This document shows positions 3,798 to 63,156 of a stretch of DNA of 64,000 nt, one piece after another; the first letter of the stretch is position 1; the number at the start of each line of letters is the position of its first letter. The stretch comes from an uncultured delta proteobacterium (lineage in GTDB: Bacteria; Desulfobacterota; DSM-4660; Desulfatiglandales; HGW-15), in assembly GCA_963702565.1 (NCBI GenBank), contig CAVPDE010000023.1:52601-116600 (forward strand). Reading direction: 5' to 3'. Under the pieces are notes generated by a model, which was not told where the DNA came from, searched no databases, and worked only from the letters and a program-made list of their open reading frames with translations. The translations under genes and the position numbers were made by a program.

Positions 3798-5469
3798 GTT
3801 GCCGATACTTGATCCTATGCGGTTGAGCTGCGGCATCCCCTAGGCGCGCCCTCTTGTCCGCTTCGTACTCCGTGTAATTCCCGTCAAACCAGATCGCCTT
3901 GCTTTCCCCCTCAAAAGCGAGAATGTGCGTGCAGATCCTGTCCAGGAACCACCGGTCGTGGCTGATCACCAGGGCGCACCCTCCGAAACTCTCCAGGGCT
4001 TCTTCCAGGGCTCGCATGGTATTCACATCCAGGTCATTGGTCGGCTCGTCCAGGAGAAGAACATTGGCGCCTGACTTGAGCATCCTGGCCAGATGAACGC
4101 GGTTTCGTTCCCCGCCCGAGAGAAGGCCGACCTTCTTCTGCTGGTCCGTGCCCGAGAAATTGAACCGCGCCACGTAGGCGCGGGAGTTCACCTCACGCTC
4201 ACCCAGCTTGATGGTGTCCAGCCCTTCTGAAATCATCTCCCAGATGTTCTTTTTGGGATCGAGCACGTCTCGGCTCTGGTCCACATAGGCGAGCTTCACG
4301 GTCGGGCCGAGCCGGATCGCGCCTGAAGAAGGCTCATCCTGACCCGTGATGATTCTGAAAAGCGTGGTTTTTCCGGCTCCGTTGGGGCCGATGATGCCTG
4401 CGATGGCTCCGGGTGGAACAGAGAAGGAGAGGTTTTCCATGAGGAGTCGGTCGCTGTAAGCCTTTGAGAGATTCTTTGCCTCAATGACCAGATCGCCCAG
4501 TCGGGGACCGGGCGGGATGAAGATCTCGAGATCCCTGTCCTGTTTGTCGGTCTCCTGACTCACGAGGGCTTCATAAGCACTGATCCTGGCCTTGGATTTT
4601 GCGTGTCGGCCCTTGGGGCTCATTCGAATCCACTCCAGTTCACGCTGCAGGGTCCTCTGCCTTTTGCTCTCGCTTTTTTCTTCCCGCTGGAGCCGGGTGC
4701 GCTTCTGTTCCAGCCAGGAGGAATAATTGCCCTTCCAGGGGATGCCCTCCCCCCGATCCAGCTCCAGGATCCACTCGGCCACATTGTCCAGGAAGTAGCG
4801 GTCATGGGTGACGGCGATCACCGTGCCGGGATAGTTCTGGAGATGGTGCTCCATCCAGGCGACGGACTCGGCATCCAGGTGGTTGGTCGGCTCGTCCAGG
4901 AGCAGGATGTCCGGCTGTTGAAGCAGGAGCCGGCACAGGGCAACGCGGCGTCTTTCCCCTCCGGAGAGGATCTTGACCGGTGTTTCCCCGGGCGGGCACC
5001 GAAGAGCGTCCATGGCCATTTCGAGCCGGGAGTCCAAGTCCCAGGCGTTCATGGCATCGATCTTTTCCTGGACCTCGCCCTGGCGCTCGATGAGCTTGTT
5101 CATCTCATCGTCCGACATGGGTTCTGCGAATTTCTCGCTGATTCGATTGAACTCGTTGAGCAGATCCACTACCGGCCGCACGCCTTCTTCGACGATTTGT
5201 TTGACGGTTTTGGTGTTGTCGAGTTGCGGTTCCTGTTCGAGAAGGCCCACCGTGTATCCCGGAGAAAGAATGGTCTCCCCGTTGAATTCCTTGTCCACCC
5301 CTGCAAAGATCCGGAGCAATGAACTCTTGCCCGAGCCGTTGAGGCCCAGCACACCGATCTTTGCCCCGTAGAAATAGGAGATGGAGATGTCCTTGAGCAC
5401 AGGCTTCTTGTCGTAGTACTTGCTCACCCGGATCATGGAGTAGATGATTTTGTTCGGTTCAGGAGCCAT
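3784..5469 (-). CDS. ettA: Energy-dependent translational throttle protein EttA (ABC-F)
   Basis: Two ABC cassettes: Walker A GLNGSGKSS and GPNGAGKTT, signatures LSGGERRR and LSGGERNR. N-terminus MAPEPNKIIYSM... is EttA-like. Start placed at ATG 5469 rather than the ORF-track 5511. The 3' end overlaps the convergent gene by 14 nt. Confidence 0.9.
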   Translation of the reverse strand: MAPEPNKIIYSMIRVSKYYDKKPVLKDISISYFYGAKIGVLGLNGSGKSSLLRIFAGVDKEFNGETILSPGYTVGLLEQEPQLDNTKTVKQIVEEGVRPVVDLLNEFNRISEKFAEPMSDDEMNKLIERQGEVQEKIDAMNAWDLDSRLEMAMDALRCPPGETPVKILSGGERRRVALCRLLLQQPDILLLDEPTNHLDAESVAWMEHHLQNYPGTVIAVTHDRYFLDNVAEWILELDRGEGIPWKGNYSSWLEQKRTRLQREEKSESKRQRTLQRELEWIRMSPKGRHAKSKARISAYEALVSQETDKQDRDLEIFIPPGPRLGDLVIEAKNLSKAYSDRLLMENLSFSVPPGAIAGIIGPNGAGKTTLFRIITGQDEPSSGAIRLGPTVKLAYVDQSRDVLDPKKNIWEMISEGLDTIKLGEREVNSRAYVARFNFSGTDQQKKVGLLSGGERNRVHLARMLKSGANVLLLDEPTNDLDVNTMRALEEALESFGGCALVISHDRWFLDRICTHILAFEGESKAIWFDGNYTEYEADKRARLGDAAAQPHRIKYRQLTRA

Positions 5470-5654: not shown

Positions 5655-7277
5655 TTACACGTCGATCCAGGTGCCGTCCAGAGTGCGCACCGACCTGTAT
5701 TTCGTCCAAACTTCCAGAAAGATATCAGCCTTGAATCCGGGCAAGGCCTCAAAACCCCCTTTCGTGGCCGCGTAAAGCCGTCTCTCGTCCAACAGCTTTC
5801 GAAGAAGTTGCGCCCCGAGTTTTTCTCTGTGTCCTGCGCTTTCCGCCTGCTTCAGAGCGTCCTGAAGCGACACCTTCTCTCCTGTCAGTCGCAGGCCTTT
5901 CAGGAAATTGATGATCCGCGCTGTGATGAAGAGAGTGTAAAGGTCGTCACGCCGGAACTGATCCGTTTCAATCGCCATAGCGGTAGATCTGGACTTGAAG
6001 ATGTCCGATTCGGTCATCTCAGGGAACTCCCCGGCGATCGGGCAGCCGGGAGTCAGGTAGAAGATGGATGCTCCGATGAGCACGGGTAGAGAGGCCATCA
6101 GAGCCATGGTATCCACCATGTCATCCGGAGTCTCGTAAGGGATCCCCAGAATCTGGTAGGAGACAATATCGAATCCAAGGCTGTGAGCCTGATTCACCAC
6201 ATCGAGATATTTGTTAAGCGTATGCGGCCGCTTGAGCCTGGTCAGAACATCGGCGTTGGCGCTCACCAGGGAGATGTTCAAGCTTCGAAAGCCCGCTTTT
6301 TTCATAAGCTCCAGGATTTCCCGGTCAAGGCTCAAATAGGATATCCCGTTCATAGCCACGAGACGCAGGTCGTCTTCAGGAAACTCCGCGATGAGAGCAT
6401 TCAATATCGTCTTTAGGTCTTCCTTGGAAAAGCTCAGGTTGTCGTCTTCGAAATCAAAGACACGATATCCTTCGGAGTAGCGCTGCCTGATCTCGGAGAG
6501 AACATTGGCTGAGGAACGTCTCCGGAATTTGTCGCCGAAGGTGAGATGGACAGAGCAGAACGTGCATTGATGAGGGCAACCTCTTGATGTTGTGATGAAG
6601 CAAAGGGGTTTCTTCTCGAACAAATAACCGTTCGGGCGGAGATCAGAGAAATCGGCGAGAGGGAGTTCATCCAAAGCGAAGTTCTCGGCCATGGGGTTGA
6701 GAACTGGTTCTCCGTTTCGTTTGAATCCGAGGTTCGGCACGCTCTCCAGAGGCAGCCCCGCCTTCCATGCTTTCAGGAATTCTACGAAAGGCCTTTCCCC
6801 TTCTCCGCGGATGATGAAGTCCACGCTCGAATCATTGAGCACGGAAAGGGGAGCGGCGGAAACGTGAGAACCGCCCATGAGGATGGGGATGTTCAAGCGC
6901 TTCTTTATTTCGCGGGCACAGGCAAGGGCTTCCCGGTGATAGGGGGAGAAGAGGGACGAGATGCCCACCAGATCGGGCTTTTCATAAGTCACATCCTTCG
7001 CGATCTCTTCAAAGGAAGCACCGAAATGGTAGTAGTGAAAAAAGGTGGAGAAGGGGCTTGAGTCAGGATATTTGAAGTGCTGGCGGAGGTAGGAAAGCTC
7101 GGCGGGCAGAGGAATGGTTTTGCGTCCGTGTCCCTGGTGATAGTCCCTGACAGTCACCTGCATGTTGGGCAGGAACTTCTTGGCTGCCGCCTTGAGCATG
7201 CAGAGCCCCAGGGGCTGAAGCCGGATGTCTGTGTCGTAGAAATCCTGAACTGGAGGCTGAATGAGCAGGATTTTCAT
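5655..7277 (-). CDS. B12-binding-domain radical SAM protein
   Basis: N-terminal cobalamin-binding-like domain followed by the radical SAM cluster motif CPHQCTFCS (CxxxCxxC). Confidence 0.85.
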   Translation of the reverse strand: MKILLIQPPVQDFYDTDIRLQPLGLCMLKAAAKKFLPNMQVTVRDYHQGHGRKTIPLPAELSYLRQHFKYPDSSPFSTFFHYYHFGASFEEIAKDVTYEKPDLVGISSLFSPYHREALACAREIKKRLNIPILMGGSHVSAAPLSVLNDSSVDFIIRGEGERPFVEFLKAWKAGLPLESVPNLGFKRNGEPVLNPMAENFALDELPLADFSDLRPNGYLFEKKPLCFITTSRGCPHQCTFCSVHLTFGDKFRRRSSANVLSEIRQRYSEGYRVFDFEDDNLSFSKEDLKTILNALIAEFPEDDLRLVAMNGISYLSLDREILELMKKAGFRSLNISLVSANADVLTRLKRPHTLNKYLDVVNQAHSLGFDIVSYQILGIPYETPDDMVDTMALMASLPVLIGASIFYLTPGCPIAGEFPEMTESDIFKSRSTAMAIETDQFRRDDLYTLFITARIINFLKGLRLTGEKVSLQDALKQAESAGHREKLGAQLLRKLLDERRLYAATKGGFEALPGFKADIFLEVWTKYRSVRTLDGTWIDV

Positions 7278-22060: not shown

Positions 22061-22097
22061 TAAAGCCCATTGGCGGAGGCCGGGTCAAGTCAAGGTT

Positions 22098-22185
22098 TGA
22101 CTCTTTTGCTGCCAGGGGCAGGGTGTCGTGCTCATCCCGTCTAAGAAACTTGTGATCGTAAGGAGTATGACTCTTTTGCTGCCAG
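22098..22185. repeat. Two direct copies of an 18-bp motif, each followed by a short hairpin
   Basis: 'tgactcttttgctgccag' occurs at 22098-22115 and 22168-22185. The copies are followed by ctgcc-agg-ggcag and ccagc-gta-gctgg respectively. Confidence 0.7.
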
Positions 22186-22192
22186 CGTAGCT

Positions 22193-23230
22193 GGGGTCAC
22201 ATCTTGAATTGTGAATTAAGTTTCTTCACTTTTCGCCCCACCCGTGGGTCTTTCTTGATGTGTTCCTTCACATCCCTGACAATATGGCTGACTGCCGAAT
22301 AGGAAACTCCGAAAACTTGCCCAATTTCCTCATTCCGGAACGCTCCCATCTCCCAAAGGGCATAAACCACAAGATCCCGATCCTCTTTCATCCCTCCTCG
22401 AACCCTCTGTCCCGGAGTATATCCATTCATCTCTCTCCCCAGCAAGGCCGCGGCATGCTTGGCTGCCCCCTTCAAGTCGATGCTTCCAAGCACCTTCTTC
22501 AGTTGAGGGATTTCCTTGTGAGCCACAATACCTCCTCTCGAAGACCGGATATCTTCCACAAATCCCTCACTTCCTAGTATCACTCCGTGCCGGAAGTCCT
22601 CCCAGAGCCGACCCTCCTCTCCGGCATACTCCTGTACCTTCTTCCTGTAAGCCTTGTGCCCCCTTCTGCCTCCAAAATAAGACAGAATAAGATCCGTCTT
22701 CAGCCAATCGGCTCCCTTCTTCCCATAGGCGTACGCAGGATAACTGCTCCAGCGGTAGTCGATCAGGCGCTTCACCATCCCCGCTCTCAACGGGTTCCTA
22801 TGGACATAACAGGACAGTTCCACGACGTAAGCATCGTTTTCCACCACCATGGCTTTGAATCGCCCCTGGAAGAGGTGTCCGTGTCTCCCCAGCCGGTTAT
22901 TGAGCCTGCGCGCATAGGTCAGCCCGAGCCACTGCATGGCCCTGGATAGATTGGGTAGGTTTGTACGTAGAATCAGATGGTAGTGGTTGCTCATCAGAAC
23001 AAAGGCAAAGACATCTATCTTGAAGCGATCCGATGTCTCCCCAAGCGTGCGTAGGAACAGCTTCCGATCTCCATCGTCGAAAAAGATATTCCTTCCTTCA
23101 TTGCCCCTGGACAGGACATGATAGTAAGCCCCTCCATACTGTATCCGCCACGGTCTAGCCAACGTTATTGCCTCCTGAATTGCCATCACCTCTATACTGC
23201 ATAATAATTCACAATTCAAGATGTGACCCC
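22193..23230 (-). mobile_element. REPtron-like unit: RAYT-type Y1 transposase gene bracketed by perfect 26-bp inverted repeats
   Basis: 'ggggtcacatcttgaattgtgaatta' (22193-22218) is the exact reverse complement of 23205-23230. Each copy contains a tcaca/tgtga hairpin. Confidence 0.65.
22197..23186 (-). CDS. IS200-like/REP-associated tyrosine (Y1, HUH) transposase with a C-terminal DnaA-domain-IV-like HTH
   Basis: HUH motif in MSNHYHLIL, and CYVHRNPLRAGMV (Tyr motif typical of COG1943/RAYT proteins). C-terminus VVYALWEMGAFRNEEIGQVFGVSYSAVSHIV resembles the DnaA C-terminal HTH. Start moved to ATG 23186. Confidence 0.75.
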   Translation of the reverse strand: MAIQEAITLARPWRIQYGGAYYHVLSRGNEGRNIFFDDGDRKLFLRTLGETSDRFKIDVFAFVLMSNHYHLILRTNLPNLSRAMQWLGLTYARRLNNRLGRHGHLFQGRFKAMVVENDAYVVELSCYVHRNPLRAGMVKRLIDYRWSSYPAYAYGKKGADWLKTDLILSYFGGRRGHKAYRKKVQEYAGEEGRLWEDFRHGVILGSEGFVEDIRSSRGGIVAHKEIPQLKKVLGSIDLKGAAKHAAALLGREMNGYTPGQRVRGGMKEDRDLVVYALWEMGAFRNEEIGQVFGVSYSAVSHIVRDVKEHIKKDPRVGRKVKKLNSQFKM

Positions 23231-23339
23231 TCCACCCCATGGGATTGGGAATCAGGGGCGCGCAACAGAAAGGAGGGCCAACCTCCAATTCGGTCAGGCG
23301 ACATCCTGACGGAGAAAGAGCCGGCCCCAAATACGGGAA

Positions 23340-25037
23340 TCATCCTTCAGTCCACTGAAGAAACTTCTTCTCTCCCTCGTAGGTCCCGATCAGTATCAGC
23401 TCCGCGTCCTCCTGGATCGGCGCCTGCGGATCAGGATTGATCGCCATGACGCCGTCGACCTTGATGGCGGCGACGGAGCACCCTGTCATCTGTCGGATCT
23501 TGGATTGGGCGAGATTCTTGCCCACGAGCGCCTTCGGAGCCTTCAGGCGGAACACGTTCAGACCCTCGGCCAACATCAGGGTGTCTTCGTTTCTCAGAAA
23601 ATTGAAAATCGCGTTGGCCCCCAGGGAGGAATAAGACATCACGAAATCGGTGCCGGCCCGGTGAAGGGTGGACACATTGCGCTCCAGGTTCGCCCGGCTT
23701 AGGATTTGCATATCCGGCCTCAAACTTCGCAGGTATTTCGTCAGGTAGATGTTCGTGTCATCATCGTGGGTGGTGACCAGGGCCGCGGGGGCTTTTTCGA
23801 TCCAGGCCTTTTGCAGCGTGCGGATATCTGCGGCGTCCCCTACCACGTAGTTTGCCTCCTCCTGTGCCCTTCGGGGGTTTTTCTCGATAATCAGGAAGGG
23901 CATGTCCCTTTCCTTGAACCGATCCGCGATGGTCTGGCCGACACGCCCACCCCCGACGATGAGGACAGGATTCGTCGTCAGACGGCAGATGTGGTAAAAG
24001 GAATAGACATCGTCATAGGCCGAAAGGTTCTTTCTGGTGCCTGCCAGCACGAGGACGCTGTTGCGGTCGATTCTGCTCGAGGCATTGGGGATTCTGAACT
24101 GCCCCCGTTCCCAGATTCCCACCACACTCACTCCGAAGTCTTCCCTCACCCGGATTTCTGCGAGCGATCTTCCGACCAGAGGGGTTCCGAAGGCGGGGAA
24201 CTCTGCGAGGATCAATTCATCAAACTCGCTGATGACGTTCGAGCGGCAGTCTCCGCCCACGGTCCATGCCGCCAGGGAGCGGCCCAACATCTCATAAAGG
24301 TGAAGGACTCGTGTGCTCCCGGCCATTTGAAGGATGTCTTCGGAGTAGGGTGAATCGGCGGTGGTGACGATCGGGACCTGCTCATTGAGTTCACGAACCG
24401 TAAAGGCAATGTTGGTGTTGATTTCGTCCCGATGGGTGGCCACGACAAGAGAGGCCCGGTCGACCCGCATTTTGCGGTAGGTTTCGGGATCGTCGATGAT
24501 CCCTACGGCAACGCGAATGCCCGCATCGTAGAGTTCCAATGCCCGCCGGAGGTCGTCCACAATCAGAACATAGTCGTGGCGGTGACTTTTCAGCTTTTCG
24601 ATGAGGGCTGTGGTCACCGGGTCATAGGCGGTGAGGATCACGTGGTCTTTTGTTTCCGGCGGGAGTTCCTTGGGCGCGCGTTTTCTCGATTCGGCTTCGA
24701 TCCAGGGCGCGTAGAAGAACTTGATGAAGGTGAAAGGAAGGAGGGTGAGGAGGAAAACCACCCCGGACAGAAGCACGACGATGGAAAACGCGCGGCCCAA
24801 ATCCGAATGGAAGGTGATATCGCCGAAACCCAAGGTGGTCATCACCGTGAGAGTCCAGTAGATGCCGGTGATCCAGGAATAGTCCCGCCCTTCATAGGCC
24901 ATGAGAAAATGGAAAGCGATGCTGTAAGCGGTCACGAGGATGACGAGAACGAGGAGGAATTTGAAAAGCAGGCGGAGATTGCGCTTGGTGCTTTCGCCAT
25001 GAACAAAATAGCCCAGTACGGACGGGTAGTACTTCAC
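23340..25037 (-). CDS. Two-TM potassium channel with tandem RCK/TrkA domains
   Basis: Selectivity filter TTLGFGDITF. Rossmann-type RCK segments (VLIVGGGRVGQ). Proposed GTG start at 25037 is preceded by GGGGAGAG. The 139 upstream codons of the ORF-track ORF are not protein-like, so the start is uncertain. Confidence 0.75.
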   Translation of the reverse strand: MKYYPSVLGYFVHGESTKRNLRLLFKFLLVLVILVTAYSIAFHFLMAYEGRDYSWITGIYWTLTVMTTLGFGDITFHSDLGRAFSIVVLLSGVVFLLTLLPFTFIKFFYAPWIEAESRKRAPKELPPETKDHVILTAYDPVTTALIEKLKSHRHDYVLIVDDLRRALELYDAGIRVAVGIIDDPETYRKMRVDRASLVVATHRDEINTNIAFTVRELNEQVPIVTTADSPYSEDILQMAGSTRVLHLYEMLGRSLAAWTVGGDCRSNVISEFDELILAEFPAFGTPLVGRSLAEIRVREDFGVSVVGIWERGQFRIPNASSRIDRNSVLVLAGTRKNLSAYDDVYSFYHICRLTTNPVLIVGGGRVGQTIADRFKERDMPFLIIEKNPRRAQEEANYVVGDAADIRTLQKAWIEKAPAALVTTHDDDTNIYLTKYLRSLRPDMQILSRANLERNVSTLHRAGTDFVMSYSSLGANAIFNFLRNEDTLMLAEGLNVFRLKAPKALVGKNLAQSKIRQMTGCSVAAIKVDGVMAINPDPQAPIQEDAELILIGTYEGEKKFLQWTEG

Positions 25038-25431
25038 AGGTTCTCTCCCCGAGGTAAGTAAACCGCAGAATACCCGCCTGCCCTGCGAAACACTTCGCAG
25101 CGCAATGGAAGCCGCAGCAGCAACAGGCACGCTGGATCCACAAAGAATCATTTTGCGGGCACAGCGGGCAGGTCGGAGAACGAATATCGAAGGCCGAAGG
25201 AAACAACAGAAGGGGCTTAACTCTGTCGTTCGAAATGACCTTTTCGACATTCGACGTTCGGGTTTCGGAATCTGTTCTTGACTGCGTTCACAGGCCTGCC
25301 CTAGGGTATTGTAGGTCAAAGACCTTGTCAACAGTGCGAAAGAGGGGTGGGGACATGACAAAAAAGCCGACGGGGAGTAGAATATGTTCCGGGTCAGAAA
25401 CAAAACGGTGAAAAAGAGAAAGGAGGAGATG

Positions 25432-26412
25432 ATGCGAACCATTGTCTCTGTCACGGTTTTGGTTATCTCTGCCCTGGTGTGGGGTTCCGGTCAAGCGGCT
25501 GATCAAGGCAATTCGGTCAGCCTTTCATGGAAATTCAAAGAGGTGGAGTTCACCTGGACCACCGAGTTCAAATCCAAGGACCTTCAGGACTACCGCAGCA
25601 GGACCAGGCCCCGAACGATCGACTACTCCATCTACGCCTCGGATCGCGTGGACGATCAGTACATGAAAGAACTCACGGGCCTGTTCAGGAAATACGCGCA
25701 GCAGTACAACATGAGCAGGCGGGAGACGATCGATTTCGTGGGTTCCTTCGTGCAGCAGCTTCCGTACACTTCAGACAGGGTGACGACGCCTTATGATGAG
25801 TATCCCCGCTTTCCGCTCGAAACTCTCTACGAGAAGGGCGGAGACTGCGAAGACACGGCCATCCTGTCAGCCACGATTCTCAAAGAAATGGGATATGATG
25901 TGGTGCTGATTGCCTTCAAAAGGCACATGGGCCTCGGGGTGGCCTGCAACGAATGTGACGGCAACTCCTATGAGGCGTCGGGCAGGAAGTACTACTACCT
26001 GGAAACCACCGGGGAGGGGTGGAAGGTGGGAGCCTTGCCCAGCCAGTATGAAGACGAGCATCCAAGACTCTTCCCCCTGATCCCTCAGCCTATCATCGAT
26101 GCGGAGCTCTCCTGCAGGGTGATCCAGGAGGCAGGCGGCTACAAGGTCTACGAGATAGAAGTGTCGGTCAAGAACGAGGGCTCCCTGGAAGCAAAAAACG
26201 TGAAAATCTACAATGCCCTTGGGGCGGAAAAGCAGGGAATGGTGTATTCCCAAGTGCAGAGCAACCCCATGTCGATCAAGCCCGGCGAATGGGTGTCCGC
26301 CAAGGTGAACCTTCAAGCGCCCAGAAGAGTGAAGACGCGAGCCCTCGTTGCCGTGTACGGGGACAACTTCCTGAGCCGGAGCGTGTTCTCCGACTGGTTC
26401 ACGACGGACTAG
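25432..26412 (+). CDS. Secreted transglutaminase-like putative cysteine peptidase with a C-terminal Ig-like domain
   Basis: Signal peptide MRTIVSVTVLVISALVWGSGQA. GGDCEDTAIL Cys motif followed by conserved His/Asp positions. AGGAGG lies 5 nt upstream of ATG 25432. Confidence 0.6.
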   Translation: MRTIVSVTVLVISALVWGSGQAADQGNSVSLSWKFKEVEFTWTTEFKSKDLQDYRSRTRPRTIDYSIYASDRVDDQYMKELTGLFRKYAQQYNMSRRETIDFVGSFVQQLPYTSDRVTTPYDEYPRFPLETLYEKGGDCEDTAILSATILKEMGYDVVLIAFKRHMGLGVACNECDGNSYEASGRKYYYLETTGEGWKVGALPSQYEDEHPRLFPLIPQPIIDAELSCRVIQEAGGYKVYEIEVSVKNEGSLEAKNVKIYNALGAEKQGMVYSQVQSNPMSIKPGEWVSAKVNLQAPRRVKTRALVAVYGDNFLSRSVFSDWFTTD

Positions 26413-26542
26413 GAATTTCACCGCAGCACAACTAGAGACTGGTTGAAACACGGCATTTATATTATCATGCATGCTTATTTCAGGGTTGCGGGTTGTCCTC
26501 AACGCTCAACCTGCAGTCACCCATTTGCAAAGGAGGGAGTTC

Positions 26543-29358: not shown

Positions 29359-30666
29359 ATGGAAATGAATACCGTGGCTGCGCCCAAAGAGTATAAGCTG
29401 TCCAAATTCAGCACCTACTACATTTTCGCCCTGCTGTTTCTGCTGTATTTCTTCGATTATGTGGACCGGATGATCGTCACCTCTCTTTTCCCCTACATTC
29501 AGAAAGAATGGGGGCTCACGGATACCCAATCCGGCCTTCTCGTCTCGGTCGTCTACTGGTCCATCGTCGCCTTCGTCTTTCCTGTTTCGATCCTCGTGGA
29601 CCGCTGGAGCCGGAAAAAAACCATTGCCATCATGGCGCTCGATGTGGAGCTTGGCCACTGCGCTATGCGCTTTCACCAAGAGCTTTCCCCAGTTGCTCAT
29701 GGCCCGCTCCGGCATCGGTATCGGGGAAGCCGGGTATGCGCCCGCAGGCACGGCAATGCTCTCCGGCCTCTTTCCTCCGGAAAAACGCTCCCGCATGATG
29801 GGTCTCTGGAACATGTCTATCCCCCTCGGGATTGCCGTTGGGATCGCCGTCGGCGGATTTGTTGCCCAGCACTGGGGATGGCGGCATGCCTTTGGTCTGG
29901 TGGCTCTTCCCGGCGCGTTTGCTGCTATTCTCTTCTTCTTTGTCAAAGATTACAAAACAGTGGATCTGGTCAAGACCGTGGGATCCTCAGGTGCCGGGGA
30001 GCACAAAAGGCCAGGATGAGCAAGATGGATATCTTTCGGGAATTTATCCATACCCCATCCCTGATGTTGACCAATCTGGGGTTTATCGGCTGCATCTTCG
30101 TCAACAACGCCATTATTGTCTGGCTTCCCACTTATCTTCACCGCGTGGAAGGCATCTCCATGAGCGAAGCGGGAACGAAGGTGGGGGCGATCATGTTATT
30201 GGCCATCATCGGTCTTCCCGTGGGAGGATGGTTGACCGATGTGTGGTTTAAGAAAAATGTGAGCTCGCGAATGCTCTTTCCAAGCCTGACCATAGCCCTG
30301 AATACCGTCGTCATCTTTGCCGCGTTTTTCTTCCTTGACGGAAAGGCACAGTACCTGATGCTCCTGCTCATGGGGGTCTTGGCCAGCATGTTCGCTCCGG
30401 CGGCCATCATCGTCACCCAGGAGGTTATCCACCCCGGCCTTCGGGCCATCTCCTACTCCGTCTGCGTGGTTTTTCAGAATCTGTTCGGGGCGTCCATGGC
30501 GCCGATCGTCATAGGGGCGCTCTCCGATGCTTACGGCATCAAAGTGGCCATGTCCATTCTGCCCGTGTTCCTGCTTGCTTCGGCGGTCCTGTTCTTTGCC
30601 GGCTCTTTTTCTTACAAGAAGGATCTGGACAAAGTAGAAAAAGTCGCTCTGGAGTGTGAAGACTAA
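29359..30666 (+). pseudogene. MFS transporter with a compensating pair of frameshifts
   Basis: The ends of the 435-aa ORF are MFS-like, but codons ~95-220 are Arg/Cys-rich nonsense. The genuine middle (MWSLATALCAF...ARSGIGIGEAGYAPAGTAMLSGLFPPEKRSRMMG...) is in the +1 frame (ORF 29624-30019). Confidence 0.7.
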
Positions 30667-30687
30667 AGGATGGTAAGGGTTTGGTAA

Positions 30688-30992
30688 CGTTCAAAAGTGT
30701 TAGCATGGGACCGAATCTATCCGGACAGGGCTGGGAGCTTTTCCTGCGTTCCAAGGCCGCCCGGGGCGGCCAAGTCTCCCGGGCTGGTCTTTTCTACGGT
30801 TTATCTACGGGGGAGTCTTGCCCCCTCCCACTGTTCCCCGCGCATTCGCTCGGGGCCAGGGGCTTCCCCCATAGATAAACCATGAAAAGACAGCGCCCTC
30901 CCGCCAGTCACTCCGGAAAAGCTCCCAGCCCTGTCCGAGGTGTGGCGAGTGATGTGAGATCCTTTGTGCGCCCATGTAAACACTTTTGAACG
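30688..30992. repeat. 305-bp imperfect palindrome (two inverted copies of a ~135-bp unit)
   Basis: Terminal 14-mers 'cgttcaaaagtgtt' / 'aacacttttgaacg'. Perfect 23-bp arms at 30722-30744 and 30915-30937 (cggacagggctgggagcttttcc). A third block, gtcttttc.a.ggtttatcta.ggggga, is present in both arms. Confidence 0.8.
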
Positions 30993-31076
30993 ATACAAAT
31001 GGTTTAGTTTTTTGAAATGAATGGCCTTTTTCTGTAACTATTTGAAGAAGCCAAACGGTTATGGAGGATAAATCCT

Positions 31077-31883
31077 TTGCTGGAAGGTAAAGTGATCGCG
31101 GTGACAGGAGGGGCCAGCGGAATCGGACTGGCCATCTGCCGGCGTTTCGGCCGCGAAGGCTGCCGGGTGGCCGTCATTGACATGAACGGGGAAGAGGCAT
31201 CGCGCCAAGTCAAGGCCTTACAGGGATCGGGTATCGAAGCTAAAGCCTTCACCTGTGACGTGAGCCGGGAAGAGGAATGCTTACAGACCATTCAGGCTGT
31301 AATTGACGTCTACGGAGGAATTGACATCCTTGTCAACAATGCCGGCCTTACTCAGCGCAGCGCCTTTGTCGATACGCAAACCGCTGTTTATAAAAAGATC
31401 ATGGCCGTGAACTTCTTCGGAGCGCTCTATTGCACCAAGGCGGCGATCAAGAGCCTGATTGAGCGGCAGGGATTCATTATCGTGACCTCCAGCCACGCCG
31501 GCTATGCCCCGCTGCTGGGACGGACGGCCTACAGCGCCAGCAAGCACGCCCTCCATGGTCTTTTTGAAAGTCTGCGGACGGAAGTCAAAGATATGGGCGT
31601 CCACGTCATGATGCTCTGTCCAGGATTTACTCGAACGAACTTGCAGGACAGGGCTCTGGATGGTGACGGCAGCATCACCCGTCATCCGCGGTCTAAAGTC
31701 GGGGCAGAAGATACACCGGAACACGTTGCCGAGGCTGTGTTCCAGGGAGTCATCAAAAGGAAGTGTATGCTGATTCTGACACCCACAGGGAAAATGACTT
31801 ACTGGCTGAGTCGCCTGGCTCCGGGACTGTATGAGAAGATCATGGCCGACAAGCTAAAGCAGGAATTGATACGCCTGCCTTAG
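31077..31883 (+). CDS. Classical short-chain dehydrogenase/reductase
   Basis: TGGASGIGLA cofactor motif, NNAG, and catalytic S...YSASK. TTG start at 31077 lies 8 nt after GGAGGA. Confidence 0.85.
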   Translation: MLEGKVIAVTGGASGIGLAICRRFGREGCRVAVIDMNGEEASRQVKALQGSGIEAKAFTCDVSREEECLQTIQAVIDVYGGIDILVNNAGLTQRSAFVDTQTAVYKKIMAVNFFGALYCTKAAIKSLIERQGFIIVTSSHAGYAPLLGRTAYSASKHALHGLFESLRTEVKDMGVHVMMLCPGFTRTNLQDRALDGDGSITRHPRSKVGAEDTPEHVAEAVFQGVIKRKCMLILTPTGKMTYWLSRLAPGLYEKIMADKLKQELIRLP

Positions 31884-59536: not shown

Positions 59537-60430
59537 ATGAGCAAAATAGGATTCATCGGACTGGGAATCATGGGTGCGCCCATGGCCGGGCATTTTCTGA
59601 CCGCCAAGCACGAAGTATACCTCTATGACATCAAACCGCTTGCCAAGAGTCTTATCACCCAGGGGGGCATCCCTTGCCTGTCGGGCAAAGAGGTGGCCCT
59701 GAGGGCGGACATCGTCATCCTCATGGTGCCGGATACACCAAACGTGGCGAATGCGCTCTTTGCGGAGGACGGTGTGGCTGCCGGCCTATCCCCTGGAAAA
59801 ATCGTGGTGGACATGAGCTCGATTTCACCGATCGAGACCAAGGAGTTTGCGAAAAAAATAGAGGCGCTGGGGTGCGACTACCTGGATGCTCCGGTGTCGG
59901 GCGGTGAGGTTGGCGCCAAGGCGGCGTCGCTGACCATTATGGTCGGAGGGAAGCCGGAGGTTTTCGAGCGGGTGAAGCCGCTGTTCGAACTCATGGGCAA
60001 GAATATCACCCTGGTGGGCGGCATCGGAGACGGTCAGACCTGCAAGGTCGCCAACCAGATCATCGTCGCCCTGACCATCGAGGCTGTCGGTGAAGCGCTG
60101 CTGTTCGCCTCCAAGGCCGGCGCTGACCCTGCCAAGGTCCGCCAAGCCTTGATGGGAGGCTTTGCCTCCTCTCGCATCCTCGAAGTCCATGGCGAGAGAA
60201 TGATCAAGCGCACCTTCAACCCTGGTTTCCGCATCAACCTTCACCAGAAAGATCTCAACCTGGCACTATCCGCGGCACGTGCTATCGGTGTCAGCCTGCC
60301 GAACACGGCAACCTGCCAAGAGCTGTTCAATGCGTGTGCCGCCCATGACGGCAGCGCCTGGGATCATTCCGCAATGGTGCGTGCCCTTGAGATGATGGCG
60401 AATTTCGAAATCGGCCAGGCTGCACCCTGA
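59537..60430 (+). CDS. 2-hydroxy-3-oxopropionate (tartronate semialdehyde) reductase / 3-hydroxyisobutyrate dehydrogenase family
   Basis: IGFIGLGIMGAPMA dinucleotide fold and the family-typical middle (DAPVSGG..GA..A.LTIMVGG) and C-terminal regions. GGAAGGAG RBS. Confidence 0.85.
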   Translation: MSKIGFIGLGIMGAPMAGHFLTAKHEVYLYDIKPLAKSLITQGGIPCLSGKEVALRADIVILMVPDTPNVANALFAEDGVAAGLSPGKIVVDMSSISPIETKEFAKKIEALGCDYLDAPVSGGEVGAKAASLTIMVGGKPEVFERVKPLFELMGKNITLVGGIGDGQTCKVANQIIVALTIEAVGEALLFASKAGADPAKVRQALMGGFASSRILEVHGERMIKRTFNPGFRINLHQKDLNLALSAARAIGVSLPNTATCQELFNACAAHDGSAWDHSAMVRALEMMANFEIGQAAP

Positions 60431-61548
60431 CGGAAGCGGAGCGGCTGCGCAGGCTCCTGCAGTAGATGCTTGAAGCCGCAGAGGGTTAGCGGATTGACTT
60501 GAGATGATCTAGAACGGAATTTCCCGGTAGCATCCACAGACCCTCCGGTTTTTTTCTGGGGTGGCTGCTGGAGGAACTTGTAGCGGTCAGCGGATCGAAG
60601 AGTAATGTCGTGGATCTCGGTGCCTTTGAGAATGCTCAGTGTGACTTCAACGCCCGCGTTGCCCAGACCCCACACCTTCCGGTAAAAGTCGGCGAGCCCT
60701 TCCACAGCTCTTCCATTCACCTTGAGAATGAGGTCATCGGTCTGGATCCCTGCCTGTTCTGCAGGCCCTTCGGGCGTGACGCGCGTCACAAAAACACGGC
60801 GGTGGGCCGCTTCTGCGCTGATCCCCAACCAGGGCCTTGCCGGCTTTTTGGGGCGGCCGGCGGTAACGAGGTCATCCAGGATTGGAGGAAGGAGATCGAT
60901 GGGGATGAAGACATTACAGGGGAGTGAGCCGACCCCTGGAATAGGCAGCTGAGCGAAAAGGGAGCCAATCCCCAGAAGTTGACCGTCAGGCCCTATAAGC
61001 GCGGCGCCGCCGAATTCTGCAATAGGCGGGGAAGCGTAAATGGCATTCTCGAGGATATATTCCCAGGAACCAACAAAATCCTGGCGCATAATGACCCTGG
61101 CCCCGATAGCCTCATCCACACCCCCATAGCCGGCCACCATGACTGGATCGCCTTCCGTGATTTTGGAAGATTGCCCCAATTTCATGGGTTTCACGTTCAA
61201 AGGGGTGTGGGTCCGCAGGACACCGAAGCCCGTCGTATGATCATAGCCAACAAAGGCGGCCTGAACCACTCTCCCTTCAGGCCCTGTCACTTCGATGGCT
61301 TCGGATTCGACGATGAGATACCCGGTGGTGAGAATAAGACCTTTGGAATCAATGAGCACGCCGCAACCTACACGCTCTGTTCCGAGGGAGGCCGCAGTGT
61401 GAGCTTCCTTTGGAACAATAGCCCGGATCTTCACAACCGCTTTGAGCACTTCCTCGGGCGCCTCATCGCAAGCGCAGGAACGGACAAAGCGAAGACAAAG
61501 GCGACGGTTGCGCAGAGCCAGGCTCTTTTCATGGGGTTTCCTTTTCAA
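60364..61548 (-). CDS. HtrA/DegP-like trypsin-fold + PDZ protein lacking the catalytic triad
   Basis: Aligns by eye to DegP around all three catalytic positions, but reads TTGYLI (His to Tyr), TTGFGVL (Asp to Gly) and AEFGGAAL (no Ser). A PDZ domain follows. The last ~70 codons are non-homologous and overlap the convergent gene. Confidence 0.65.
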   Translation of the reverse strand: MKRKPHEKSLALRNRRLCLRFVRSCACDEAPEEVLKAVVKIRAIVPKEAHTAASLGTERVGCGVLIDSKGLILTTGYLIVESEAIEVTGPEGRVVQAAFVGYDHTTGFGVLRTHTPLNVKPMKLGQSSKITEGDPVMVAGYGGVDEAIGARVIMRQDFVGSWEYILENAIYASPPIAEFGGAALIGPDGQLLGIGSLFAQLPIPGVGSLPCNVFIPIDLLPPILDDLVTAGRPKKPARPWLGISAEAAHRRVFVTRVTPEGPAEQAGIQTDDLILKVNGRAVEGLADFYRKVWGLGNAGVEVTLSILKGTEIHDITLRSADRYKFLQQPPQKKTGGSVDATGKFRSRSSQVNPLTLCGFKHLLQEPAQPLRFRQGAAWPISKFAIISRARTIAE

Positions 61549-61596: not shown

Positions 61597-62862
61597 TTAC
61601 TTCTTCGCCTCTTTCATCCTTTTTTCATAGCCGTCCCGGACCGCCTTCAGTTCTTCCGGGGTCCTGCAGACCTGCTCTGCCTGGATGGCCTGCAGGTTCT
61701 TCAGCACGGCAAAACCATACTTGTCGCTGAACAGGGTTTCACCCCAGACCACATCCTCCACAACCGCGTGATCCTCTTTGCGCATGATCTTCCAGCCCTC
61801 GGGCGTCTCCCAGGCCAGAGGTTCGCTTTCTATGGCCCTGATCACTTTCTGCGCGTCCGTGCTCTTGGCTCTTTCTATGGCGGCTTTGAGGAAATAGACG
61901 CCTGCATAGGTTTCCTGAGCCATGTAGTCCGGATACTCCTTGAAACGGTCCATGTAGCCTTTGACGAAATTGCGGTTCATGGCCGTGTCCGGAGAGAGGA
62001 AGAAGTAGCGAGCGGCCACAAAGACGCCGTTGGGCAGGTCTTTCCCAAGAGGGACCAGTGTCTCCAGGGCAGCGCCGTCCGTGAAGGCGAACTTCACGTT
62101 GTTGAACACGCCGGTGGGCAGGGCCTGCTTAACGAAATTGACCGCATCCATGCCCCAGAGAGAGGACCAGACCGCGTCGGGCTTGGTTTCCACGATCTTT
62201 TGAATGAAAGGCGTGAAGTCCTTCTCCATCAGCTTGGGCCACAGCTCGCCCACGACCTCCGCGTCAGGCTGAAGCTCCTTGAGCTTGGACGCAAAGGAAG
62301 CCCAGGACTCGCGGCCGTAAGCGTAATCCGGCCCGATGTTCATCCACTTTTTATATCCCTTGGGAGCCATGAAGTAGGCGCCTGCCCGGGAGTGCATCAT
62401 GGCATTGCTGAGAGTGCTGAACACGTAGGGGTTGAATTTGGCGTCTGTCAGAGAGTTGGCCGCTGCCTGGGTGAGGATGAGGATTTTCTTTTCTTTCAGG
62501 GCCAAGTCAGCTAAGGCCACGGCAATGGCGCTCGATGTAGGTCCCATGATGAAGTCCACTTTATCCTTTTTGATGAACTTGTTGGCGATCTCAACGCCCA
62601 CCTCGGGCTTCATCTTGTCATCTTCAAAAATGGCCTCCACCTTTCTCCCCAGGATTCCCCCTTTGGCGTTGATTTCATCGAGGGCGAGCTGGACTGCCTG
62701 AGACCCATGCTTGCCATAGCCGCCCATGGGCCCGGACATGATGAAAAGAACGCCCAGCTTAATGGGCTTGGCCGGTTTCTCCGCGGCCAGGGCAGGGCCG
62801 CAGATCAGAACGATCGAAAGAAAGCACACAACGATTCCCATTTTCCATCCTCTGCTGATCAT
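61597..62862 (-). CDS. ABC transporter substrate-binding protein (LivK/urea-type PBP)
   Basis: Signal peptide MISRGWKMGIVVCFLSIVLICGPALA, then type-I PBP sequence. GAAGGGGGA RBS before ATG 62862. Confidence 0.85.
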   Translation of the reverse strand: MISRGWKMGIVVCFLSIVLICGPALAAEKPAKPIKLGVLFIMSGPMGGYGKHGSQAVQLALDEINAKGGILGRKVEAIFEDDKMKPEVGVEIANKFIKKDKVDFIMGPTSSAIAVALADLALKEKKILILTQAAANSLTDAKFNPYVFSTLSNAMMHSRAGAYFMAPKGYKKWMNIGPDYAYGRESWASFASKLKELQPDAEVVGELWPKLMEKDFTPFIQKIVETKPDAVWSSLWGMDAVNFVKQALPTGVFNNVKFAFTDGAALETLVPLGKDLPNGVFVAARYFFLSPDTAMNRNFVKGYMDRFKEYPDYMAQETYAGVYFLKAAIERAKSTDAQKVIRAIESEPLAWETPEGWKIMRKEDHAVVEDVVWGETLFSDKYGFAVLKNLQAIQAEQVCRTPEELKAVRDGYEKRMKEAKK

Positions 62863-63156
62863 GTTTGTTCCCCCTTCACTTTGTGGTTTTTGAAAGACGT
62901 TCTTATCGGCACAGAGAAAATCTGATTCAGTCAAACGAGAGGAGTGAAATGGTCATTGCGCAGGCATTGATACGAAAAGGGATCATAGGGAAAAACCCTG
63001 GGGCCGTCAATCCCGAAAATACTGAAATACCGTGAGAACACCCCCCTCTCTCAATGGTTGTCAAAGAGCTCAGGATAGAGCTATAATGCCCGTCATTCAG
63101 TGCTGATCCTATCTGAGGTAGCTGCGGGATTGCTTACAGACGCGGAGGAGAGGAAA

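Follow-up and report, generated by a model that had tools for sequence, protein, structure and literature searches.

RAYT-like genes (RAYT stands for REP-associated tyrosine transposase and REP for repetitive extragenic palindrome) that lie between long terminal inverted repeats (TIRs) were described in 2013 by Di Nocera, De Gregorio & Rocco (BMC Genomics 14:522, PMC3733652), who named the genes TIRYT and the complete units TIRtrons. The major TIR type has a common GGGGWSAS motif, the TIRs overlap the 3′ end of the gene, and some members only are associated with moderately abundant TIR families, which are found singly, as dimers or in groups. Quentin et al. 2018 (PMC6006769) placed the TIRYTs in subclass 2.1, equivalent to RAYT Group 1 of Bertels et al. 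2017, and reported that the C-termini of group 2.1.2 resemble Bac_DnaA_C, HTH_23 or HTH_28, and that GGGG[AT][CG]A[CG] does not resemble the DnaA box. According to Bertels et al. 2017, Group 1 averages 1–2 copies per replicon, its duplicate rate of 6% is the highest among the RAYT groups proper, and its flanking 16-mers occur in about 12 copies. In the literature searched, the term TIRYT was found only in PMC3733652 and PMC6006769 (plus a preprint), neither of which contains biochemistry. Here, a stretch of 64,000 nucleotides from an uncultured delta proteobacterium (contig CAVPDE010000023.1, positions 52,601 to 116,600; hereafter the window) is analysed around a RAYT-like gene enclosed by inverted repeats at positions 22193–23230, which is compared with these systems.

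With a probability of about 0.8, the 1038-bp unit at 22193–23230 is a TIRtron, that is, a TIRYT gene bounded by 26-bp TIRs with a GGGGWSAS start, corresponding to RAYT Group 1/HUH subclass 2.1. All the defining features of TIRYT/TIRtron and of subclass 2.1.2 that were tested were found in it: a protein with HUH and Y---NP motifs, long TIRs that are not REPs, the GGGGWSAS motif (as GGGGTCAC), a 3′ TIR lying over the gene end, and a helix-turn-helix (HTH) domain like Bac_DnaA_C. In related genomes, the TIR occurs in moderate numbers as single copies, dimers and groups. No difference in kind from the described class was seen. The architecture is already published, and the window element is a well-preserved member of a known, little-studied class and not a new system. 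Three points differ. The clade, centred on Desulfobacterota/Thermodesulfobacteriota, is not among the 26 published examples as given in the available part of PMC3733652, the TIR is unusually conserved, with at least 22 of 26 nt kept while the proteins drop to 31% identity, and its inner part resembles a DnaA box.

Architecture of the window element and its transposase

The TIR sequence GGGGTCACATCTTGAATTGTGAATTA is located at 22193–22218 on the + strand, and its exact reverse complement over 26 of 26 nt is located at 23205–23230, just as the initial annotation had described; the chance expectation for copies of such a 26-nt TIR in the window is 0.00. The outer end of both arms, GGGGTCAC, matches GGGGWSAS. 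In the orientation of the gene, 23205..23230 (−) is the 5′ or promoter-side TIR, which reads GGGGTCACATCTTGAATTGTGAATTA on that strand and fits the motif with its outer 8 nt, and 22193..22218 (+) is the 3′ TIR. The latter covers the stop codon (22197–22199) and the last six codons of the gene (LNSQFK-M), which encode the family-conserved C-terminus NSQFKM; the overlap had been recognized before and was found to be correct.

The TIRYT coding sequence extends over 22197..23162 on the − strand, stop included, and encodes 321 amino acids from a TTG codon at 23160–23162, as judged from the open reading frame (ORF) list, the homologues and the Y1_Tnp match. An ATG start had been proposed previously. 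This codon (23184–23186, − strand) is indeed in frame, is separated from the right arm by 18 nt and would give 329 amino acids, but the TTG is the more likely start because AGGAGG lies 8 nt upstream of it and nearly all homologues are 321 amino acids long with an N-terminus of the form M/L-ARPWRI. In the window copy, both TIRs are perfect and the reading frame is intact. A search against Rfam gave no match in the element region at E ≤ 1, nor in the whole window at gathering score.

The protein matches the Pfam family Y1_Tnp with E = 5.9e-11, and its catalytic motifs were examined in an alignment of 37 homologues with 53–89% identity. The HUH motif, His-Tyr-His, at residues 68–70 (329-amino-acid numbering; 22977..22985, −) is invariant among them. 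The catalytic tyrosine motif, Y-V-H-R-N-P at 22791..22808 (−), corresponds to Y---NP, the signature of RAYT-like class 2 Y1 proteins (PMC6006769), with Y127, H129, R130, N131 and P132 all invariant. An AlphaFold model built from the 37-homologue alignment had a mean pLDDT of 77.7, and its best Foldseek match in the PDB was E. coli TnpA-REP with a REP hairpin (4er8, E = 4.7e-7, TM score of 0.73 on the target), followed by the TnpA proteins of IS200, IS608 and ISDra2. The NCBIfam model REP_Tyr_transpos scored 64.6 bits, below its equivalog cut-off of 80. From the motif and the predicted fold, the protein is classified as a RAYT-type class 2 Y1 transposase and not as an ordinary IS200 TnpA, which agrees with the initial annotation.

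An additional domain (approximately residues 236–329; 22200..22481, −) was also assigned at the C-terminus. Despite the weak support from the single sequence (TIGR00362, E = 0.005), for which the PDB search was uninformative, the family profile against the PDB placed DnaA (8btg and 3pvp) at the top with E = 0.02–0.05, aligned over the entire domain IV. The C-terminal ~95 residues of the predicted model superimpose on M. tuberculosis DnaA, in its DNA-binding domain (3pvp), with a TM score of 0.78 and a root-mean-square deviation of 2.5 Å. In Pfam, Bac_DnaA_C was matched in 7 of the 37 homologues, and Bac_DnaA_C, HTH_23 and HTH_28 were each found in 7–8 of the 37. The family-invariant R270 and H301 align in the profile with an arginine and a histidine in DnaA, which correspond to R399 and H439 of the E. 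coli protein, residues that contact bases in the DnaA–DNA complex. Other DnaA contact positions are replaced by the invariant or near-invariant family residues N285 and Y296. Taken from profile and predicted fold together, the C-terminus is a DnaA-domain-IV-like HTH, so that the fusion suspected from the single translation is borne out, and the proposed profile searches returned Y1_Tnp for the window protein and Bac_DnaA_C for some of the homologues.

The element resembles the TnpA elements of the IS200/IS605 group (IS608, ISDra2): it has the Y1 HUH fold with one catalytic tyrosine, the unit measures about 1 kb, and no target duplication is visible. However, the ends of those elements are asymmetric subterminal hairpins, whereas here the ends are perfect terminal inverted repeats; in addition, the tyrosine motif is of the class 2 type, Y---NP, and an HTH domain is present. 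In TnpA proteins of the IS200 type, the tyrosine motif is Y---Q and no HTH is known.

The same repeat in other genomes

Homologous loci (denoted L with a number) were retrieved by protein identity, so that this set carries no bias towards a DNA pattern. The TIR flanks the gene in unrelated contexts in L003/L007 (80–81% protein identity), L010/L011 (78%) and L026 (64%), and it is also found at L014 and L017 (56–60%), where the upstream copies are degenerate or interrupted. Between unrelated loci, DNA homology begins at the outer G of one arm and ends at the outer C of the other, or at most a few bases away. Full units, 1035–1049 nt in length, were collected from about 14 different flanking contexts, and the homologues sharing the TIR range from 31 to 99% identity. 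Thus delimited, the unit recurs as a block bounded by its TIRs. Close relatives were not found on plasmids or phages, from which only relatives with 26–41% identity were recovered. One of these, on a Legionella adelaidensis plasmid (33% identity), shares the layout: its 26-nt inverted repeat is 92% complementary, has a GGGTCA core and covers the stop codon with its 3′ arm.

Conservation of the TIR far exceeds that of the protein. At L111, at least 22 of the 26 nt are kept at 31% protein identity. This TIRYT occupies 2740–3817 of L111 (CBFDDH010000005), and the same contig carries a 92-nt gene-free doublet at 7051–7142 with the same TIR variant. Among ten distinct lineages, the two arms agree with each other at positions 15 and 17 in 10 of 10 cases and at position 7 in 8 of 10, even though changes at positions 7, 15 and 17 alter the encoded C-terminal residue (M/I, F/I, Q/L). 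The comparison therefore shows two arms that evolve in concert even when the encoded C-terminus changes. In addition, the third-codon positions of N-S-Q-F-K are identical across the protein-retrieved loci. The repeat is therefore constrained as DNA, beyond its coding role.

Five Desulfobacterales species (L029, L050, L117, L142 and L130) have the unit in orthologous position, where it directly follows the terminator of one shared upstream membrane-protein gene, and some lineages have therefore been inherited vertically.

Some of the homologous loci also show local rearrangements. Seven contigs (L003–L009) carry an identical TIRYT, in the order 343/347-amino-acid gene, 72/78-amino-acid gene, 144-amino-acid gene, HTH-peptidase M78 gene, 92-amino-acid gene, TIRYT and the 343-amino-acid gene again, a gene order that points to a repeating block of ~4.8 kb around the TIRtron, either tandem or circular. 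TIR ends are tandemly duplicated in places. L010 contains at 2909–2962 a 24-nt duplication, formed by TATGA and the initial 19 nt of the 5′ TIR, which is absent from L011. At 3941–3998 of L010, a stretch of 28 nt, made up of the final 15 nt of the 3′ TIR and 13 nt of flank, is duplicated, as it is in L011 and L044. In CAZOLJ010000014 (L078 7328–8000 and L038 1–807), the TIR and a 5′ gene fragment are repeated in the same orientation ahead of a further copy, and L087 has two TIR-plus-N-terminal fragments, at 1740 and 3323, 1.6 kb apart. The rearrangements of L078/L038 and L087 centre on the 5′ TIR.

The TIR was also searched directly, using one genome per species (GTDB) and the pattern GGGGTCAMATCTTGAWTWGTGAA. 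Matches were obtained in at least 117 DNA stretches from at least 70 assemblies, mostly Desulfobacterota metagenome-assembled genomes (MAGs), together with some labelled Stahlbacteria, Kuenenia, Bacteroidota and others. The TIR is thus a repeat family in at least 70 related assemblies, with 2 copies in the 64-kb source window. Among the matches listed, there are at least 11 full units, at least 2 pairs around a gene remnant, at least 22 single copies beside gene fragments, at least 25 gene-free inverted doublets, at least 58 gene-free internal single copies and at least 24 copies at locus or contig edges. The recorded copies per genome are at least 1–8 in these related MAGs.

Among the same matches, the 83 gene-free internal copies have a median longest covering ORF of 56 codons, compared with 277 at random positions of the same loci, and only 5% of the gene-free copies lie in ORFs of at least 150 codons, compared with 67% of the random positions. 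The gene-free copies are intergenic, and the dispersal check that had been suggested for the repeat gave a positive result in these related genomes.

When less than 200 nt separate the arms, the GGGG ends of the doublets all face outwards and their total length is 39–202 nt. Two 165-nt doublets (L060 and L075) still contain both ends of the gene, its opening codons (LARPWRI) and its final ones, and have clearly arisen from the full element by internal deletion. Five loci have a 92-nt doublet in common. In the flanks of the doublets that were compared, no direct repeat indicative of a target duplication is visible. These TIR–TIR doublets of 39–202 nt, including the internal-deletion derivatives, are reminiscent of miniature inverted-repeat transposable elements (MITEs), but classical MITEs need DDE transposases and make target duplications, none of which were seen here.

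The gene-free copies follow the TIR variant of the gene in their own genome. For the 14 assemblies with both kinds of copies among the matches listed, gene-free and resident gene-linked TIRs differ by a mean of 0.98 mismatches within a genome and 2.67 between genomes, and 73% of the gene-free copies are within one mismatch of the gene-linked TIR of their own genome, compared with 20% for other genomes. By these sequence distances, the dispersal pattern is as expected for non-autonomous derivatives of a resident element, with the caveats that most TIR positions were set by the scan pattern and that the genomes are related to each other.

E. coli TnpA-REP (4er8) with its REP/BIME repeats and the REPIN–RAYT system of Pseudomonas resemble the element in several respects: they provide the best structural match of the catalytic domain, they have a cognate flanking repeat in inverted orientation and intergenic gene-free copies, their inverted doublets form long hairpins as REPINs do, and repeat variant and gene co-vary per genome. 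The short doublets described here fold as perfect hairpins of 25–28 bp, with −27 to −31 kcal/mol and z values of −12 to −16. In contrast to the REP and REPIN systems, the arms here are not palindromic and have no conserved GTAG, the protein has an extra DnaA-like HTH and does not reach the NCBIfam RAYT model, and the copy numbers appear to be tens at most instead of hundreds (at least 1–8 recorded in the related MAGs).

A hairpin in the arms and the GTAG had been put forward as REP-like. The 5-bp hairpin within each arm does exist, but it is weak: its folding energy is −2.4 kcal/mol with z = −1.3, and 21 of 200 shuffled sequences fold at least as well. All five pairs are kept in 73 of 180 copies, a count biased by the scan pattern, which fixed pairing partners, and positions 7 and 17 vary without compensation; the protein-retrieved L017 shows the same lack of compensation. 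The hairpin was discarded as a REP-like structure. Similarly, GTAG is present at 22187–22190, 2 nt beyond the left arm, and the closest lineages (L003, L010 and L044) have CTAC after the 3′ arm, yet GTAG lies outside 3 of 178 copies when 1.5 are expected, so it is not a family feature and was rejected as a REP-type tag.

The initial annotation had combined these features into a classical REPtron, in which a domesticated, single-copy RAYT has disseminated GTAG-tagged REP palindromes through the host genome. The RAYT-like protein, the GTAG/CTAC occurrences just mentioned, the intergenic location of the gene-free copies, the synteny of one sub-lineage in five species and the presence of the exact protein on only one large and one short contig are all compatible with it. 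Nevertheless, we regard it as quite unlikely: REP_Tyr_transpos stays below its cut-off, the arms are not palindromes and their hairpin pairs are neither stable nor compensated, GTAG lies outside only 3 of 178 copies, the recorded copy numbers per genome are low (at least 1–8), and PMC3733652 separates TIR-flanked genes from REPtrons. The flanking repeats are cognate and inverted, as had been stated, but they are not REP palindromes. The term "domesticated" is not supported either: the many contexts, the several full or truncated copies in some MAGs and the polymorphic window locus speak against it, and the five-species synteny speaks for it. The TIRtron assignment is retained in what follows.

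DnaA-box resemblance and putative promoter

The inner 9 nt of the TIR were compared with the DnaA box, TT[AT]TNCACA, read against TTATNCACA. In the 5′ TIR of the window, these are TAATTCACA (23205..23213, +), with a mirror copy at 22210–22218, and they agree with TTATNCACA at 8 of 9 positions. In the collected copies, the most frequent inner 9-mers are TAATTCACA (55 copies, 8 of 9 matched), TTATTCACT (31 copies, 8 of 9) and CAATTCACA (30 copies, 7 of 9), and the match is perfect over 9 of 9 in 10 of 177 copies. The 5′ arms of the five-species syntenic lineage have TTATTCACA, which is a perfect DnaA-box consensus. The resemblance of the inner TIR 9-mer to the DnaA box, and with it a putative site for the HTH domain, is new but unproven. 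It differs from the statement in PMC6006769 in that Quentin et al. compared the outer GGGGWSAS motif only, whereas the DnaA-box-like stretch here belongs to the inner TIR.

A putative sigma-70-like promoter was recognized at 23191..23219 (−), with the −35 element TTGAAT (23214–23219) inside the TIR, a 17-nt spacer and the −10 element TATAGA (23191–23196). The same arrangement, TTGA[AT]T in the TIR and TAnnnn 17 nt further on, is seen in most of the listed 5′ regions, and from this conserved spacing the TIR appears to contain a promoter −35 element, a point that is likewise new but unproven. The DnaA-box-like site would thereby fall in the spacer of this putative promoter.

This location could also fit a purely regulatory repeat, whose arms would be paired operators for autoregulation through the HTH or would pair in a read-through mRNA, with a gene that is not mobile. 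The overlap of the 5′ arm with the putative −35 element and spacer, the HTH domain itself and the partial coding constraint on the 3′ arm would all be accommodated. It leaves unexplained the intergenic gene-free doublets and single copies, as well as the break of homology at the outer arm ends in unrelated contexts, and it does not fit the invariance of the catalytic HUH motif and tyrosine. We consider it extremely improbable, and the unit is treated further as a mobile TIRtron.

Strain variation at hrpB and proposed mechanism

The element appears to be intact and present once in the source genome, where it marks one edge of a cassette that varies between strains. Two contigs are recorded with the exact window protein, a large one and, from another sample, a short one that ends 5 nt past the stop codon, at the TIR end. 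The variable segment of 4.3 kb (22134..26423, no strand assigned), delimited by blastn against L144–L146 and L148/L149 and by Pfam, lies between a thiamine pyrophosphate (TPP)-enzyme gene and hrpB. It contains a transglutaminase-like ORF (25384–26412, weak DUF553), a TrkA-type K+ channel gene (23340–25454) and the TIRtron, which forms its hrpB-side edge.

The locus comparison suggested earlier revealed that the locus is polymorphic between strains. L144–L146, whose HrpB is 93–96% identical, are without the element. In L148, the transglutaminase-like ORF and the channel gene are found as a cassette at a different locus and without the TIRtron, between homologues of the window ORFs 59537–60430 and 61597–62934, with the join within a stretch of ~30 nt that is similar between window positions ~23288–23312 and ~60400–60434. 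L001 and L002 carry the same element at the same locus, and the native hrpB leader restarts right after ...GTGACCCCAGCTAC, 6 nt past the 3′ TIR. The corresponding GTAGCT of the window (22187..22192, +; AGCTAC in gene orientation), which constitutes the 6 nt outside the 3′ TIR, stays with the element, and the hrpB leader resumes directly after it in L001/L002.

On the other side, the 7 nt that lie outside the 5′ TIR (GGGTGGA, 23231..23237, −) also stay with the element. At this boundary begins an indel of L001/L002 that is shared by a variant in L149 and whose placement is ambiguous by ~2 nt: L001 (1992–2121) and L002 (1851–1980) have an extra 129–130 nt starting 7–9 nt outside the 5′ TIR that are absent from the window, and this segment has no match among the other sequences collected for comparison. 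L149 (295–328) keeps the first ~32 nt of the extra segment joined to the middle of the TIRYT gene. It is a decayed copy, in which a deletion that begins inside this segment has taken away the 5′ TIR and the catalytic domain. Finally, L003 and L007 encode 100% identical proteins and diverge 8 nt outside the 5′ TIR. Four independent strain-level breakpoints are thus located 6–8 nt outside a TIR, and this clustering is a hint that the enzyme may cut at that distance.

Two direct repeats next to the left arm, described as 18-bp copies in the initial annotation, are real and extend over 21 nt with 1 mismatch, but they lie outside the element. Copy 2 (22095..22115, +) is part of the native hrpB 5′ leader, conserved upstream of hrpB in the element-free L144–L146. 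Copy 1 (22165..22185, +) is a local duplicate of this leader segment, present in this strain only and absent from L001/L002 and from all the other TIRtron loci. The 50 nt between the two copies have no match among the other sequences collected for comparison. Given the native origin of the hrpB-proximal copy and the strain-specific occurrence of the other, the repeats were rejected both as a part of the element and as a target duplication. A terminator-like hairpin with a T-run at 22082–22103 (+) overlaps the native leader repeat, on the strand opposite to hrpB.

The polymorphism of this locus, with a decayed copy in L149, also brings up an ordinary selfish insertion sequence (IS), autonomous, currently active, bearing TIRs and having no host role. 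The ~14 flank contexts, the miniature derivatives, the several full and truncated copies in single MAGs (CAZOLJ, JAZDOU and JAXHLQ), the many matches at contig ends and the window copy with perfect TIRs and intact ORF are what such an element would produce. On the other hand, no single genome was seen to carry near-identical copies at two wholly different sites, there is one copy in the 64-kb window with the exact protein on one large contig, five species share an orthologous site, RAYT Group 1 averages 1–2 copies per replicon with 6% duplicates (Bertels 2017), and the plasmid and phage relatives are distant only. This explanation is judged unlikely, and a low-copy TIRtron is preferred.

A mechanism may be proposed for such a TIRtron. 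The HTH domain would bind the inner half of the TIR as a duplex, the candidate site being the DnaA-box-like 9-mer. Such binding would also repress the transposase's own gene, because the putative promoter has its −35 element in the TIR and the 9-mer in its spacer. The catalytic domain, with its HUH motif and tyrosine, would nick single-stranded DNA a few bases outside the TIR, and excision and reinsertion would proceed without target duplication, as for IS200/IS605. The miniature doublets would be mobilised in trans, and as single-stranded DNA they would fold into 26-bp hairpins similar to REPINs. A more specific version with four joint parts is rather doubtful: an HTH with DnaA-box-like specificity would bind TAATTCACA/TTATTCACA, it would repress its own expression, the HUH domain would cut 6–8 nt outside the TIR, and use of the 3′ end alone (ending ...CCCCAGCTAC) would have moved the K+-channel/transglutaminase cassette to hrpB.

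Several observations weigh against this interpretation. Binding by TIRYTs, the cleavage site and the strand are all inferred. No third TIR copy was found in the 64-kb window, even when up to 3 mismatches were allowed or relaxed patterns were used. The scan pattern fixed most TIR positions, which biases the conservation statistics. The DnaA-box fit is imperfect, since the window TIR agrees at 7 of the 8 specified positions and perfect agreement is limited to the 10 of 177 copies cited above; the comparison was post hoc, and in a random 26-mer a 7-of-8 match is expected by chance in 2–5% and an 8-of-8 match in 0.1–0.2% of cases. A stricter consensus promoter scan called no promoter on the gene strand. 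Finally, neither the HrpB relatives nor metagenomes scanned for the K+ channel gene's 3′ end yielded a clean empty site; what they did bring to light were the variable cassette and the decayed copy.

Two further features of the window were recorded. The mechanical ORF of the K+ channel (23340–25454, −) has 704 amino acids, while the same gene has 565 in L001 and 581 in L002, where it touches the contig end; from these lengths, the long N-terminal extension is probably not translated. Elsewhere, an intergenic region of ~320 nt at 30681–30999, between the + strand ORFs 29359–30666 and 31077–31883, contains two nested inverted repeats, 30722–30749/30910–30937 (28 nt, 93%) and 30681–30709/30971–30999 (29 nt, 86%). 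It has no Rfam family match; a miniature element and a large structured RNA are both conceivable.

As an annotation, the outcome is ordinary: a mobile element with few copies that borders a strain-variable cassette. TIR-flanked RAYT-like transposases, named in 2013, are the largest RAYT group, and the questions that the class poses concern the use of terminal inverted repeats by a single-strand HUH enzyme and the role of the DnaA-like domain. With its very conserved 26-bp TIR, its natural miniature derivatives and a candidate HTH site that overlaps a putative promoter, the clade described here would be a good model.

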